Shown here: piece after piece, positions 9,778 through 16,163 of the stretch | Layout: each line of letters starts with the position of its first letter | Position numbering within the stretch: position 1 is the first letter of the stretch | Virus record (IMG/VR): IMGVR_UViG_3300042453_002354 | Span: 1-64,000 of that record | Reading direction: 5' to 3' (one strand) | Length of the DNA stretch: 64,000 nucleotides | Source: a virus | Program-made: the position numbers and the translations under genes | The notes under the pieces: model-generated | What the model saw: only the letters and a program-made list of their open reading frames with translations | Databases searched by the model: none | Told to the model about the DNA's origin: nothing

Positions 9778-10823
9778 TAGTAATTCTGCCTTATATGGTC
9801 TTTTGTTAGCATGAAAATTTCTTGGAATTCTATGCTCAAGTCAACTTGAACAGGTGCACCTGTTCCTATAAAAAATGAGGCCTGACCTGGACCATATCTT
9901 GCGGTCAAGTTTGTTATAACACAAGGACCAAAGTTAAACATAAATGCATTACTTTTGCCTGTGCTATAAAATCTTAAAATCATTTCGTCAGGATATTCAA
10001 ATGTCGTTCCTAGTGCAACTCCTTCGCCTCCTACTCCTGAATGTGATGCTTCTTTTAATCGTTTTATTAAATTATGTATTGCTCCACTTTCTTCGGGAGA
10101 TCTTGCAAAAAGTTGCCATTCTATTGAAATTGTTCTAAAATCGTGCGATTGATATAATAGTGCTTTGTGTGGATTTACTATTGATCTACTACCCCTTTGT
10201 CTAACATTACCAAATACAGTGGCATCAATTGCTCTTATACCAGAGGCAATATTAGAAGCACCTTGCGAGGCGTTTGATGAAATTTGTCCAAGTCCTCCCA
10301 TTATTTCTGTAGCCGCACCTGCCATCCCACCTAGCGCATCATCTTGCCACCTTGCACTATATCTAGCTTGAATATCCGGCGGCATATAAAGTGCTATCGT
10401 ATCAGTAAGCTCAGGTCTATTAGAATTGCCTATTATATCAATTTCAATTCTCGATGAATTTTTTGTTCCATTAGAACCTTCATTATCTAATAAATCGAAA
10501 GGAAAAACAAATTTTTGTACATCACCCTTTCTCGGCAAGTTTGATGATTTGAAAATATCAAAACCTAAGCCTATTGTTAGTAGGTTTTCGCCGGCGGTAA
10601 TCATCTCTCTAAATGCAGTTAGTCCTGATTCTGTGTTGGATGCTATCCAAGTAAAGGCGGACTCTAGATTGGTGAGGTTCAGTTTATCAAATTCAGCCTG
10701 TGGTATAACAGATCTTATTTGTGAGAATACTGCATCCTGCATTGCAGATTCTGAACCATTTGCCCTAGCTCTGGCAACAAGATCCGCAATTTGTTGTTGT
10801 GTGCTTTGTGTGTTATCTGGCAT
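9777..10823 (-). CDS. 48: baseplate tail-tube cap gp48
   Basis: IALYMP, VNPHKALLY...FRT, ARSPEES, YPD, PCVITNL, PVQVDLSIEFQEI. Confidence 0.8.
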   Translation of the reverse strand: MPDNTQSTQQQIADLVARARANGSESAMQDAVFSQIRSVIPQAEFDKLNLTNLESAFTWIASNTESGLTAFREMITAGENLLTIGLGFDIFKSSNLPRKGDVQKFVFPFDLLDNEGSNGTKNSSRIEIDIIGNSNRPELTDTIALYMPPDIQARYSARWQDDALGGMAGAATEIMGGLGQISSNASQGASNIASGIRAIDATVFGNVRQRGSRSIVNPHKALLYQSHDFRTISIEWQLFARSPEESGAIHNLIKRLKEASHSGVGGEGVALGTTFEYPDEMILRFYSTGKSNAFMFNFGPCVITNLTARYGPGQASFFIGTGAPVQVDLSIEFQEIFMLTKDHIRQNY

Positions 10824-10834
10824 ATAATCTAAAT

Positions 10835-11272
10835 ATGTTTATGAAATACTATCAAGGACAATTTAATCCCAGAAATAAGCAAAAATACGTTGGTAACGTA
10901 AATGCCATATATTATAGATCCTCTCTAGAACTTAGAGTATTTATATGGTGTGATAGAAATTCTTCCATAACAAAATGGACATCGGAAGAAGTTGTCATAC
11001 CCTATAAATGTCCGATAGATAATAATATGCATAGATATTTTGTAGATTTATTGATTGAATTTAAAAATAACGAAAAAATGTTAGTGGAAATAAAACCAGA
11101 AAGATTTACAAAACCTCCAAAAAAAGGAAAAAGTGATAAAAGATATTTAAAGGAAACTATCGAATATGCAAGAAATATGGCAAAATGGGAACAAGCATCA
11201 GACTTTGCAAAGAAAAATAATATAGAGTTTGCGGTATGGACGGAAAAGACGATCAAACAACTGGGATTATAG
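10835..11272 (+). CDS. 4: head completion nuclease gp4 (TnsA-like)
   Basis: YQGQFNPRNKQKYVG, YRSSLE, WTSEEVVIPY, HRYFVD, VEIKP, NMAKW; start 10835 or 10841. Confidence 0.9.
   Translation: MFMKYYQGQFNPRNKQKYVGNVNAIYYRSSLELRVFIWCDRNSSITKWTSEEVVIPYKCPIDNNMHRYFVDLLIEFKNNEKMLVEIKPERFTKPPKKGKSDKRYLKETIEYARNMAKWEQASDFAKKNNIEFAVWTEKTIKQLGL
10938..10945 (-). promoter_or_regulatory. T4-type late promoter (inside gene 4) for the gp48-53-27 operon
   Basis: Exact TATAAATA on minus strand ~115 nt upstream of the gp48 start. Confidence 0.5.
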
Positions 11273-11841: not shown

Positions 11842-12648
11842 ATGTCATTAAGAACGCCAAGTCTAACAAATTTTTTAGGTGCAGTCGGAAAAGGTTTTCA
11901 AAGACCTTGGAGATACTATGTACTATTTGATCTTCCGTATGGACTCACGAAAGATCAGGGTTCTTTGAGAGAAGTTTCAAATTTAGTACCAGCATTAGCA
12001 TCAAAAGTTGAATTGCCAGGTAGGGAGATAGAGACAGTAGAATGGAAACATCAAGGCAAGTTGAGAAATATGGCGGTTTATGCCAAATGGCCTTCTATAC
12101 AAATTACATTCTTATGTGATGAGGAGATGAAGATTAAAAAAATGCTAGATGCGTGGCAAAATTTTGTCATAGATCCAAATAGCTATTATGTAAATTATTA
12201 CGATGAATATGGAAGACAAGGATGTACAGTCGCAAGTTTAGATTCGGCTGGCTTACCAACTTACTGCGTAAGAATAAATGAATTTTGGCCTAGAAGAGTT
12301 GATCCAATAGTATTAACTAGTGATGGTGGTCAATCTGTAGCAACTGTAGAAGCAGAATTTGTTATGAAAGATTGGCACAATTCGGATAGTATAGGATTAC
12401 AACCAAATTCTAGTGCCGCTGACGATATATTTTCAAAATTAAGAATAGATCCAAAGTCTTATATAGATTCTCTATTACAAAATGTCACAGATCCTAACGA
12501 TAGAAATAGTATTTTGAGTTTAAATGACACTCTAAATAAAAGGCTAACTTCGGACTTTAATCACTTAAAAGGTTTTGTCTTTGATCCTCTTGCGTCTCTA
12601 TATTCAGTGACACAATTAATAGCAGGAAAAAAATTGTCACAAATTTAA
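11842..12648 (+). CDS. 54: baseplate tail-tube initiator gp54 (gp19-like fold)
   Basis: RPWRY, VELPGR, ITFLCD, WQ, YYDEY; position in the 4-2-54-26-51 order. Confidence 0.7.
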   Translation: MSLRTPSLTNFLGAVGKGFQRPWRYYVLFDLPYGLTKDQGSLREVSNLVPALASKVELPGREIETVEWKHQGKLRNMAVYAKWPSIQITFLCDEEMKIKKMLDAWQNFVIDPNSYYVNYYDEYGRQGCTVASLDSAGLPTYCVRINEFWPRRVDPIVLTSDGGQSVATVEAEFVMKDWHNSDSIGLQPNSSAADDIFSKLRIDPKSYIDSLLQNVTDPNDRNSILSLNDTLNKRLTSDFNHLKGFVFDPLASLYSVTQLIAGKKLSQI

Positions 12649-12662
12649 TTAAAATTATTTGA

Positions 12663-13406
12663 ATGGAGAATACAATGTTTAAACAATTACAATTGCCAGT
12701 ACATGAAATAGAATTGCCCGTCACAAAACAAAAAGTAAGAATAAGACCGTTTACGGTGAAAGAAAACAAAATATTATTGATGGCACTAGAGACAGAAAGT
12801 GTCGATCAAATGATTATTGCCACCAAACAAATAGTATCAAATTGTATAGTGCATCCAGAATTGGATGTAGACAAGATGGCATTCTATGATTTGGAATTCA
12901 TTCTATTAAACATAAGAGCCGCATCAGTATCGGAAATTTTGACCCTAAATCTATCGCCAACAGACAGACCAGATTGTGATGAATGCAAAAAGTCAAAATC
13001 GATAGAAGTCAATTTAAACTCAGTAAAAGTTTTTATACCGGAAAATTATAATAAAAAAATAAAACTAGATTGTGGACTAACAGTTTGCATGAAAGACCCC
13101 ACATATGAAACCATCTCAAAGTTCAAAGAACTAAACTCGCCGGATGTTGAATCGGTTTTTAATTTTGTTTCCGAGTGTATAAAAACTATATCAGATGAAG
13201 AAACAATCTATGATCTAGATGCGATGGAAGTATCAAAAGAAGAAGTATTAAAATTCATAGAGTCTTTACCGATAAAAGATTTTAATAAAATAGAAAAATT
13301 CTTTGAAGATTTACCAAGACTTGAGCACGTTGTATCTTGGGAGTGTTCTTCCTGTCAAACAAAAAGAAACTATGAAATGCGAGGTATAGAATCTTTTTTA
13401 GAATAA
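12663..13406 (+). CDS. 26: baseplate hub assembly protein gp26
   Basis: LPV...RPFTVKENKILLMALE, DLEFILLNIRAASVSE, FFEDLPRL, GIESF. Confidence 0.9.
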   Translation: MENTMFKQLQLPVHEIELPVTKQKVRIRPFTVKENKILLMALETESVDQMIIATKQIVSNCIVHPELDVDKMAFYDLEFILLNIRAASVSEILTLNLSPTDRPDCDECKKSKSIEVNLNSVKVFIPENYNKKIKLDCGLTVCMKDPTYETISKFKELNSPDVESVFNFVSECIKTISDEETIYDLDAMEVSKEEVLKFIESLPIKDFNKIEKFFEDLPRLEHVVSWECSSCQTKRNYEMRGIESFLE

Positions 13407-13585
13407 TGCTGGGCCATGAATCCTTGTTTGCTCATTACCAAAACAACTTTTCTATGATCCAGCATCATAAATACTCATTAAGAGAAATCGAAGAAATGAT
13501 TCCCTTAGAAAGAGAAATCTACATTGCATTATTAAATGATTGGATAGAACAAGAAAATGAAAGAATAAAGAAAGCTATGAAATAA
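13406..13585 (+). CDS. 51: baseplate hub assembly catalyst gp51 (59 aa)
   Basis: Not in track. MLGHESLFAHYQNNFSMIQHHKYSLREIEEMIPLEREIYIALL... is typical gp51; TAATG overlap with gp26. Confidence 0.9.
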   Translation: MLGHESLFAHYQNNFSMIQHHKYSLREIEEMIPLEREIYIALLNDWIEQENERIKKAMK

Positions 13586-13591
13586 AATTCT

Positions 13592-13987
13592 ATGAAAGAT
13601 AAAGCCACTAAAACAAAAAATAAAGGTTTGGTTGCATCCGCAATAGAAAGACAAGGACTTCAACCGAATAAACCACACAACAAAGAAATAGTGGCATTAG
13701 GAGGTGCACCTAGATTCGAGGAGGATGTTGAAGATAAAAAGGACACAAAAATTAATGAAAGCTCTGTAGAAATTAGTGATACGTGGAGAAATAGAAGAAG
13801 AATGGCATATTTTTCTTTATTTTCTATTATGCTTGTAACTTATTGGGCACTTTTTGTGGTACCTGAATCCAGATTAAAAATTTTAGGTGAAGTTATAACT
13901 TGGTTTTATTTTGTTATGGCATCTGTGGTAGGTGGATACGTAGGATTCTCTGCATTTGAGAAAAAATGGAATTCAAAGAATAAGTAA
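13592..13987 (+). CDS. two-TM membrane protein (holin-like candidate)
   Basis: RRRMAY followed by two hydrophobic helices and a basic C-terminus. Confidence 0.55.
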   Translation: MKDKATKTKNKGLVASAIERQGLQPNKPHNKEIVALGGAPRFEEDVEDKKDTKINESSVEISDTWRNRRRMAYFSLFSIMLVTYWALFVVPESRLKILGEVITWFYFVMASVVGGYVGFSAFEKKWNSKNK

Positions 13988-13994
13988 GGCACAG

Positions 13995-16163
13995 ATGGAA
14001 GGTTCTTTATCACCGATAATCTACAAAGCACAAAGCCACGATGGTCCCAAAACCATAGAACTAAAAAGATCTGGCAAAAATAAATGGACTGTAGAAGGAG
14101 ATGAGAATCCCGAAACTTCCACATCAACAGTATTGCCCCATTTGATGTCAGAAAGAAATCAAGCTAAAAATAATAATTTAAAATCTCAAAAAAATCCGTA
14201 TGGTCAATTAACCTTAGCGGGTATGGGAGACGCACTAAAGTCCATTTCGCCTGCATTTGCACTAGGACTTGCATCCTTTGGACCAAATACTCAAAAATTA
14301 ATGGCATTGGCGGCCGCCGGATACGGAGTATATAAGGAGGCAAAACAAGGTTCAATCGAAAGGAGAGAAAAGTACAGAGATTGGATGACAGAAAATCAAA
14401 GTGACGTAAATCTACAAAGAATGAATCCTCCTGTATTTGCCGATGTTAGTGCAGCAGGTGCATATGCAAATCAAACTAATGAGGACATTGGAAAACAAGT
14501 TGTAAAACAATTAGAAATCTCTAACAATCTACAAAGAGAATATTTGGATTTTCTTTATGATCAAAGAGAAACTGGTACAAAACCAGAAGGTTCCGCATTT
14601 AAAGAAAAAATTAAAAATAAAGAAGATCAAACTGATAAAATTCAAGAACAAAGTCAATCATTTTTTGGTAAAATAAAAGATTTTATATTTGGAATGGGTT
14701 CAGCAACTGCGGCATTAGCTTTATTTCCAAAATCTATTAAAAAAATCATTTCAGCTATAACATCAATAGTTGGTGGTTTGGCCGGTGGAAAGGTCGCAAA
14801 ATCAATCGCAAAGGTGGCTACAAAGGCCGCTAAATCGGTAAGTAGTGTCGCAAAGGTTGCAACAAATGCTATCACAAAAGGTATAGCAAAAACTGGTGCT
14901 GGAAAAATTATATCAAAGTCTGCAAAATCTGCGTTTGAAAAAATAGCACCAAAAGTTATTGGTAAAAATGTTGGTAAATCTGCATTGAAAAAAATACCAA
15001 TAGCGGGCGCCATAGCCGGCGGACTGTTTGCAATACAAAGAGCCTTTGAGGGCGACTGGACTGGAGCCGGAATGGAAATAGCATCCGGTGCGGCCAGCAC
15101 CATACCTGGTCTTGGAACCGCAGCATCTGTAGGAATAGATCTTGCATTGGCCGCAAGGGATTTATCACAAGAAGACGATGGTATTAGTGTGTCATCCGAA
15201 TCTGCTACGAACGTAATGCCTGCACCACAACCGGCCCCCGTACCAAGATCTAATGTAATGAATCGTCGTAGTAGTATCAGAACATCAGGCGGTGTTGCCG
15301 GTATGATACCTCCTGCACCGATACCGGCACCAAAGACAAAAGGCAAACTTGAGCCTGAGATGCAAGCAATGCTAACTAGTGTTGCCGAAAAACACGGAAT
15401 AGATCCTGCGGCCTTTATTGCAATGGCAGGACACGAATCTGGATTTAATCCTAGTGCAGTCAGTCCAACTGGTGCTATGGGACTGTTTCAATTTACAAAA
15501 GGAACTGGAAGACAGTATGCGGAGAAATTAGGATTCAGTGGTGATTTAAATCAAATAAGAATGGACCCTATGAAAAATGCGGAAATGGCGGCCGCATTAT
15601 ATAAAGATAATTTGAAATCTATGCAAGCTGTAATGAAGGAAAGCGGATTTACAGACGAAGCAACGGCCGCATATCTTGCACATAACTTAGGTGCAGGAGG
15701 AGCTAAGTCATTATTGAGACAATATGGAGCAAATCCGAATGCGCCTCTGCAATTGACTAGAGATATGGCCTTAAATCCTGCTAATTTTAGAGGAGTAGCA
15801 ACACCTGCACAGGCACTTCAAAGATTATCTAACGTTGCAGGCAGTTCTTCCGCCGAGGCTTATAGACAAAAATATCAAATTGGTCAAATGAGTGTGTCAC
15901 CATCTGTTCAAAATATGTCCGTTGAACCATCGGTACCCTCTATGTCACGGGCACTTGCGAGCAATTCTGCACAGAATGCAGGATTACAAACCTCCATGAA
16001 TGCAAGAACCGCACAATCGTCGCCAGTTATTATGAATAATATGTCGAGTGTAGGAGGAAATGGTGGTGCTTCGACACCACCAAGAGGTAATATTAAACCA
16101 AGACCAGAAGAGCCATATTTTTATGAATTGCAGAAAAAGGCATTATTAAGTTCCGTTTCCTAA
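13995..16163 (+). CDS. tape-measure/gp29-like protein with lytic transglycosylase (SLT) domain
   Basis: A/G/K-rich helical region; HESGFNPSAVSPTGAMGLFQF and AHNLG SLT motifs; follows gp26-gp51; likely start 13995. Confidence 0.75.
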   Translation: MEGSLSPIIYKAQSHDGPKTIELKRSGKNKWTVEGDENPETSTSTVLPHLMSERNQAKNNNLKSQKNPYGQLTLAGMGDALKSISPAFALGLASFGPNTQKLMALAAAGYGVYKEAKQGSIERREKYRDWMTENQSDVNLQRMNPPVFADVSAAGAYANQTNEDIGKQVVKQLEISNNLQREYLDFLYDQRETGTKPEGSAFKEKIKNKEDQTDKIQEQSQSFFGKIKDFIFGMGSATAALALFPKSIKKIISAITSIVGGLAGGKVAKSIAKVATKAAKSVSSVAKVATNAITKGIAKTGAGKIISKSAKSAFEKIAPKVIGKNVGKSALKKIPIAGAIAGGLFAIQRAFEGDWTGAGMEIASGAASTIPGLGTAASVGIDLALAARDLSQEDDGISVSSESATNVMPAPQPAPVPRSNVMNRRSSIRTSGGVAGMIPPAPIPAPKTKGKLEPEMQAMLTSVAEKHGIDPAAFIAMAGHESGFNPSAVSPTGAMGLFQFTKGTGRQYAEKLGFSGDLNQIRMDPMKNAEMAAALYKDNLKSMQAVMKESGFTDEATAAYLAHNLGAGGAKSLLRQYGANPNAPLQLTRDMALNPANFRGVATPAQALQRLSNVAGSSSAEAYRQKYQIGQMSVSPSVQNMSVEPSVPSMSRALASNSAQNAGLQTSMNARTAQSSPVIMNNMSSVGGNGGASTPPRGNIKPRPEEPYFYELQKKALLSSVS

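Follow-up and report, generated by a model that had tools for sequence, protein, structure and literature searches.

A conserved T run at the gp26-gp51 junction of T4-like phages predicts a short and a long tail assembly chaperone from one gene

The gp26 gene of a divergent T4-like phage very probably gives rise to both a short and a long protein by slippage on a T run that is conserved among its relatives. We consider it likely that the slip is a -1 ribosomal frameshift, by which the sequence usually called gp51 would be appended to gp26 to form a predicted long chaperone of 307 aa. The stretch of DNA analyzed here (hereafter, the window) comprises 64,000 nt, positions 1 to 64,000 of the IMG/VR virus record IMGVR_UViG_3300042453_002354, and is AT rich, with a GC content of ~34%. 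Its gp26 is at most 36% identical to those of named phages, with the best matches coming from cyanophages and the pelagiphage HTVC008M, while five IMG/VR contigs are ~94% identical to the window at the DNA level.

The 3' end of gp26 reads TCT TTT TTA GAA TAA, which contains a T_TTT_TTA heptamer in the X_XXY_YYZ phase (Table 1). The -1 frame is open from about position 13374, passes through the heptamer, and continues to a stop at 13583-13585, so that a product joined at the heptamer would contain 246 + 61 residues. The initial annotation had claimed an in-phase heptamer at this end of gp26, a stop-free passage of the -1 frame into gp51, and a Shine-Dalgarno (SD)-like GAGGT located 8 nt 5' of the heptamer and 20 nt from the gp51 ATG, and each of these is found exactly where it was placed. 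The heptamer alone is nevertheless common in so AT-rich a window: there are 12 in-phase copies of T_TTT_TTN in the 49 long ORFs and 100 runs of six or more T's on the plus strand. Hence, its significance must come from conservation in relatives. These counts are what lends some appeal to the idea that the run arose by chance at a gene end next to a small overlapping ORF in a 34% GC genome and has no recoding function, an idea that the comparisons below make extremely improbable. The 11 in-phase occurrences outside gp26 include AAT TTT TTA at codon 10 of the gp54-like gene, and no genome-wide avoidance of T_TTT_TTN was seen in the other long ORFs of the window.

Table 1. Locations of the features discussed in the text; positions refer to the window unless a locus of a relative (L number) is given.
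Feature	Location	Strand	Remarks
gp4 head-closure homologue	10799-11272	+	phrog_218, 2e-51
gp54-like tail tube initiator, upstream neighbor of gp26	11842-12648	+	phrog_45 (tail tube), 4e-23
gp26, predicted short tail assembly/baseplate hub chaperone, 247 aa, zero frame	12663-13406	+	Pfam T4_baseplate, 9.5e-46; phrog_150, 9e-51
SD-like GAGGT, candidate upstream stimulator	13381-13385	+	
Slippery heptamer T_TTT_TTA, X_XXY_YYZ phase	13394-13400	+	Read directly
-1 frame extension ("gp51"), 61 codons plus stop	13400-13585	+	phrog_634, 8e-23
gp26 zero-frame stop TAA	13404-13406	+	Read directly; one codon past the heptamer
ATG at codon 3 of the -1 frame, TAATG overlap	13406-13408	+	Possible coupled start of a free 59-aa gp51
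Candidate stem-loop, beginning 5 nt after the heptamer	13406-13465	+	-18.5 kcal/mol, z -3.9
131-aa membrane protein ORF	13592-13987	+	Hydrophobic C-terminal half; between chaperone and tape-measure-like gene
Tape-measure-like protein, 722-735 aa, SLT lytic transglycosylase domain	13956/13995-16163	+	Pfam SLT, 3.8e-18
gp51 as annotated in Syn1	L006:3696-3884		Start at least 50 nt past the slip site
gp51 as annotated in HTVC008M	L007:3669-3860		Start at least 50 nt past the slip site
gp51 as annotated in Aeromonas phage 65	L104:1950-2129		Start at least 50 nt past the slip site
gp51 of Cronobacter phage S13	L013:2163-2333		Uncalled in the record
Tight hairpin	L021:1504-1525		
Tight hairpin	L087:1501-1522		
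Tight hairpin	L093:1504-1525		
Tight hairpin	L083:1504-1525		
Tight hairpin	L029:1503-1525		
Ackermannviridae-type locus, Vibrio phage YC	L015:2170-2435		
Ackermannviridae-type locus, Vibrio phage K369	L103:1801-2080		
Ackermannviridae-type locus, Kuttervirus Sa157lw	L102:1890-2200		

For the comparison, 80 IMG/VR loci were gathered by similarity to the middle and C-terminal parts of the gp51 peptide only, so that their selection was blind to the junction; the addition of nine named phages with the heptamer, belonging to six or more genera and drawn from Kyanoviridae, Schizotequatrovirus, Angelvirus, Emdodecavirus, Chakrabartyvirus, RSP15, and S13, gave 89 relatives that form 73 clusters at 80% nucleotide identity. 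Relative to gp26, the frame of gp51 is -1 in all 89, including those with an apparent gap of 50 nt between the annotated genes, and all 89 have an in-phase T_TTT_TTN located where both frames are open; Aeromonas phage 65 displays the same arrangement of frame and heptamer. The frame of gp51 relative to gp26, on which the initial annotation had staked its proposal, is thus not random, and its constancy over 73 clusters, which include the GC-richer phages pf16 and phiM12, speaks directly against a chance origin of the run. The last base of the heptamer is C in 42 relatives, T in 30, and A in 17, and the zero-frame stop follows the heptamer with a spacing of 3 nt in 78 of the 89. In tblastn comparisons, similarity to the window's -1 peptide begins at residues 1 to 4 past the slip site at all loci.

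Constraint is also seen at synonymous sites, as the initial annotation had anticipated. The first Phe codon is TTT in 89/89 relatives versus a background of 71% elsewhere in the same genes, and the codon before it (AGT, TCT, AAT, GAT, or GCT, encoding S, N, D, or A) likewise ends in T in every case, against T-ending backgrounds of 50% for Ser and 33% for Ala, with the proviso that nucleotide conservation at the heptamer is confounded in part by a conserved motif of the peptide, G-[LIM]-x-x-F-F. In the 17 TTA cases, the zero-frame residue has changed from Phe to Leu while the T run has been retained, which points to selection on the nucleotides and not on the peptide alone. Such synonymous constraint is a further argument against a chance T run.

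It could be argued that no recoding occurs and that termination-reinitiation at the ATG at 13406 is the sole source of gp51, as a free protein of 59 aa, with the T run merely encoding the Phe-Phe/Leu end of gp26. Under this scenario, the synonymous constraint on the run is left unexplained, as protein coding does not account for it. Moreover, in 50 of the 89 relatives, ATG, GTG, and TTG are all absent from the first ten conserved -1 codons, and just 21 have an ATG there, whereas the window has one at codon 3, and it is this ATG that makes reinitiation plausible in the window itself. Public records do annotate gp51 as a separate small gene, but the starts assigned in Syn1, HTVC008M, and Aeromonas phage 65 remove conserved sequence, and in the window, the R-I that precedes the ATG is part of a conserved segment that can be aligned with T4 gp51, itself contiguous. 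The constant frame by itself is less telling here, since TAATG and ATGA overlaps automatically place a downstream gene in the -1 frame, and starts devoid of SD sequences are the rule in this operon. Taking these points together, we regard reinitiation as the only source of gp51 as improbable. The caveat of the initial annotation, that the TAATG overlap also permits coupling, stands in a narrower sense: as the genes of the operon lack SD sequences, initiation at this ATG is possible in this clade, and coupled reinitiation may add a free 59-aa gp51 beside the fusion.

Phage T4 provides both a contiguous equivalent of the predicted fusion and a natural control for the T run. Its gp26 (208 aa) and gp51 (249 aa) are hub assembly chaperones (Leiman et al. 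2010, PMC3004832). Both match the T4_baseplate profile; T4 gp26 consists of this domain alone and ends in ...GLKEFFELL, while T4 gp51 combines the domain (residues 1-201) with an extension that aligns with the window's -1 peptide, its residues 147-246 spanning positions 2-103 of the phrog_634 profile. The alignment of the -1 peptide with the T4 gp51 C-terminus starts from the first residues of the former. Because T4 gp51 thus carries the body together with the same extension, it represents the predicted fusion in uninterrupted form. The T4 counterpart of window gp26 is gp26, which has the body without the extension, and that of the predicted 307-aa protein is gp51, which has the body plus the C-terminal helical extension. 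The difference lies in the genes, with T4 having two paralogous and divergently transcribed ones, 26 for the short and 51 for the long form, in place of the window's single gene and its -1 frame. The reading of the initial annotation that gp26/gp51 are the T4-like equivalent of lambda G/GT is supported, with the correction that T4 itself does not frameshift.

A separate, divergently transcribed gp51 was found in T4, MX01, fHyAci03, PSTCR6, Acj9, AS4, and O157 typing phage 6, and the heptamer is present at the end of gp26 in 0/7 of these, the ends being GAG TTC TTT in T4 and GAA TTT GTT, GAG TTT ATT, etc., in the others; these seven cases probably go back to a single event or a few events in evolution. 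The slippery run is therefore retained with a -1 ORF downstream and missing exactly where the long form has its own gene, a matched loss that neither exclusive reinitiation nor chance would lead us to expect. Certain relatives of the Ackermannviridae type (Vibrio phage YC, Vibrio phage K369, and Kuttervirus Sa157lw) are without T_TTT_TTN, and their gp51-like ORF is still in the -1 frame. Their gp26 ends all contain T_TTC_A (GCT TTC ATG, CTT TTC AAG, and ATT TTC ATT), which could be a P-site-only slip site; alternatively, gp51 could be started independently in these phages.

The two frames could, in principle, also be joined during transcription, with RNA polymerase adding one U in the T6 run. 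Efficient polymerase slippage needs about 8 to 9 or more T's, whereas the window and most relatives have only six (TTTTTTC or TTTTTTA after a non-T base), and thirty relatives come closer with runs of 7 to 8. The run is always in the same phase (X_XXY_YYZ), a constancy that polymerase slippage does not require, and the synonymous enrichment of an SD-like element next to it points to the ribosome. Homopolymeric T runs can indeed make polymerase slip, and UUUUUUU is under-represented in all three frames in Escherichia coli, possibly for this reason (PMC4066793). On balance, we judge transcriptional slippage to be quite unlikely and favor the ribosomal frameshift.

The SD-like element takes the form of a GAGG, GGAG, or AGGA core 8 to 11 nt 5' of the heptamer and is present in 58/89 relatives versus 6.6% of control windows. 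Within the element, the choice among synonymous codons is also biased: the Glu codon is GAG in 32/57 cases versus a background of 24% (odds ratio, 4.1). With one sequence per cluster, the odds ratio for GAG is 3.6 (p 5e-5), and GGG for Gly is enriched 5.5-fold at synonymous sites. The initial annotation had pointed to an upstream SD of the dnaX type, and these results fit that analogy, although a conserved E/R/K-G peptide confounds them and the statistics ignore phylogeny. We therefore suggest, from the enrichment, that the GAGGT of the window probably raises the slip rate.

The downstream RNA presents a more heterogeneous picture. The candidate stem-loop of the window recurs with the same fold in its 94%-identical relative L001 (-17 kcal/mol, z -3.6), a pair too close for covariation to be testable; this clade-specific structure may raise the slip rate. 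Across the family, RNAalifold predicted no pairs on 67 junctions, and the folding energy of the 38 nt after the heptamer is no better than that of gp26 control windows (mean, -4.2 versus -3.6 kcal/mol). A strong downstream hairpin is present in only about 7 to 10 of the 73 lineages, and the stem-loop of the window is not conserved outside its own clade; a search of Rfam gave only a chance-level match on the opposite strand. Five lineages (L021, L087, L093, L083, and L029) have a tight hairpin of 8 to 9 bp located 5 to 6 nt past the heptamer. The L-S-H-E-S-L codons make up this hairpin, and changes in its two arms compensate for each other from one lineage to another (GGCTCTC/GAGAGCC, GACTCTC/GAGAGTC, and GACTTTC/GAAAGTC). 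L095 and L050 have a different long hairpin, and most lineages are without any. The conserved M-M-Q-H-H codons (columns 92-106 of alignment A4), which are ATGATGCAACATCAT in most relatives and lie at 13455-13475 in the window, ~55 nt after the slip site, are self-complementary (ATGATG/CATCAT).

In E. coli assays, H_HHU_UUY belongs to the group of heptamers with the most efficient -1 shifting, and shifting is weaker with UUA in the A site than with UUC or UUU (PMC4066793). The window, which has UUA there, may accordingly have a low shift rate, like that of lambda G/GT. We tentatively propose, as a possibility rather than an expectation, that the internal SD-like purine tract (GAGG/GGAG/AGGA, 8 to 11 nt upstream, synonymously selected), and not a downstream structure, is the universal stimulator in T4-like phages, with strong hairpins being lineage-specific add-ons, and that clades combining UUA, TAATG, and an ATG at codon 3 make three products, namely, the chaperone in its short form, the fused long form, and free gp51 produced by coupled reinitiation.

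At the protein level, gp26 covers positions 4-218 of the 219 in the T4_baseplate profile (PF12322), and the gp51 peptide matches positions 59-115 of phrog_634, annotated "baseplate hub assembly catalyst," as well as positions 238-277 of phrog_150, the profile of the gp26 family itself. No solved structure was found among the sequence relatives of gp26. An AlphaFold2 model of the protein has a mean pLDDT of 92.8. In a VIA-align search of this model against structural representatives, the top matches, all on residues 1-98, were 3fgx (Z 9.1; 86 residues aligned at an rmsd of 3.6), 2ob9, which is the tail assembly chaperone of HK97 (Z 7.8; 88 residues, 4.6), YqbN, 3klu (Z 6.7; 89 residues, 5.0), and 5ir0 (Z 5.6). 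The matches that come next after these chaperone-type ones are unrelated, score Z 4.4, and involve a different part of the model. Foldseek likewise ranked 2ob9 first, yet with an E value of 0.5. The modeled structure thus supports the conclusion that the N-terminal domain of gp26 folds like the HK97-type tail assembly chaperones, the moderate scores indicating kinship at the level of the fold.

The -1 frame extension is modeled as a small helical domain (pLDDT 84.7). A word-based search did not recover any longer proteins containing the gp51 domain, a result of little weight given that T4 gp51 is too divergent to share words with it. As candidate Pfam families for the extension, DUF6889 and Stealth_CR2 were rejected, since both matches are below threshold and occur in 1 and 11 of 65 relatives, respectively. 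The gp26 protein further contains two CxxC pairs (DCDEC and ECSSC, residues about 105-108 and 228-231). The second of these directly precedes the G-x-x-x-F-F end; CPxCG occupies this point in T4 gp26, PX29, and KVP40-like phages. This suggests a zinc-ribbon-like element, which is not found in the lambda-type chaperones.

On the plus strand of the window, the gene order is gp4 head closure, gp2, the gp54-like tube initiator, gp26, gp51 (as an ORF of 59 codons, 13406-13585), the 131-aa ORF, and the SLT domain protein, which matches the annotated order in Syn1, HTVC008M, PX29, and phiM12. The gp4 homologue has a second match, to the Pfam Tn7_TnsA-like_N domain of the endonuclease fold (3e-18). 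The initial annotation had a tape-measure-like gene following gp51 shortly after; such a gene is present but does not succeed gp51 directly, the 131-aa ORF being interposed, and the HTVC008M and phiM12 records also show a small ORF in this place. The start of the tape-measure-like gene is ambiguous between a TTG at 13956 and an ATG at 13995. Its product displays weak pairwise similarity to T4 gp29 (E 0.005), and in HTVC008M and phiM12, the product of the equivalent gene carries the annotation of a putative tape measure. Its position and size, the annotation of its relatives, and the weak match to gp29 make it a candidate tape measure protein. Its SLT domain, absent from T4 gp29, spans residues 477-592, and the protein also has Gly/Ala-rich hydrophobic stretches.

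Several parallels are offered by known frameshift systems. One is lambda gpG/gpGT, together with the -1 frameshift that is conserved among tail assembly chaperones (Levin 1993; Xu 2004, 2013, 2014; summarized in PMC5009743). As in lambda, the predicted products of the window share an N-terminus, the long one resulting from slippage by -1 shortly before the short ORF ends, the gene is located just upstream of the putative tape measure region, and the N-terminal fold is chaperone-like. On the other hand, there is no detectable sequence similarity between the lambda proteins and window gp26, which is about twice the size of gpG and has extra domains and the CxxC pairs; the heptamer is U_UUU_UUA and not G_GGA_AAG; and, unlike in lambda, one ORF separates the chaperone from the tape-measure-like gene. 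The -1 frameshift of E. coli dnaX, described by Larsen et al. in 1994, reportedly uses an upstream internal Shine-Dalgarno sequence as a stimulator, which recalls the SD-like sequence at a comparable place in the T4-like phages, but dnaX has another heptamer, and the T4-like junctions are without a conserved downstream hairpin. Christie et al. are said to have reported in 2002 that the tail chaperone E/E+E' of phage P2 is made by frameshifting at T_TTT_TTG; P2, too, is a myovirus, and the heptamer in its tail chaperone gene is likewise a U run that ends with a UUR codon, though the protein family is unrelated at the sequence level.

Taking the invariant -1 frame, the conserved heptamer, and the chaperone fold of residues 1-98 together, we propose that gp26 is the tail assembly chaperone of the window phage and the counterpart of lambda gpG. 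The majority of the ribosomes would reach the zero-frame TAA and release the 247-aa short form. A minority would slip by -1 on U_UUU_UUA, with the P-site tRNA-Phe and the A-site tRNA-Leu re-pairing to UUU UUU, and would then read on in the -1 frame across the gp51 sequence. The resulting long form, with the predicted junction ...GIESF(L/F)RIMLGHESL..., would correspond to lambda gpGT and to T4 gp51, which is contiguous. During the assembly of the hub and tube, both forms might then act on the tape-measure-like protein.

The initial annotation knew of no description of this frameshift for T4-like phages; this part of it does not stand. Vladimirov, Gautam, and Davidson (Virology, 2022) reportedly identified gp26/gp51 as the tail assembly chaperones of T4-like phages. 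A later paper, crediting Vladimirov et al. 2022, treats poly-T runs as signals already known for -1 slippage in the "TAC-N genes of T4-like phages" (PMC12846349), and another states that some T4-like phages have a short gene and a long fused gene in place of frameshifting (PMC10274946). As far as these citing texts go, the frameshift is therefore already known in kind, and the system described in 2022 shares with the window the gene family (T4_baseplate plus the gp51 extension), the position, and the poly-T signal. The window differs in coming from an uncultured phage with a gp26 distant from those of the named phages and in having a heptamer that ends in TTA. Three points may go beyond the 2022 paper, namely, the SD-like element, the hairpins confined to certain lineages, and the variants seen in the Ackermannviridae.

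A joined CDS is annotated in 0/12 of the public records with the tandem arrangement that were examined, and gp51 is called in them as a separate short ORF, truncated, or missing, as it is in Cronobacter phage S13. The record of Kuttervirus Sa157lw has no CDS annotated across its gp51-like ORF. As the join is unannotated in these records, the annotation of marine T4-like phages could be corrected. A 2016 review of recoding described G-T frameshifting as conserved among long-tailed phages "except T4" (PMC5009743). The results presented here would bring the T4-like phages under the rule for long-tailed phages, whereby one gene yields the tail assembly chaperone in both a short and a long form through a -1 slip, with T4 proper being the derived case in which the job has been split between two paralogous genes.
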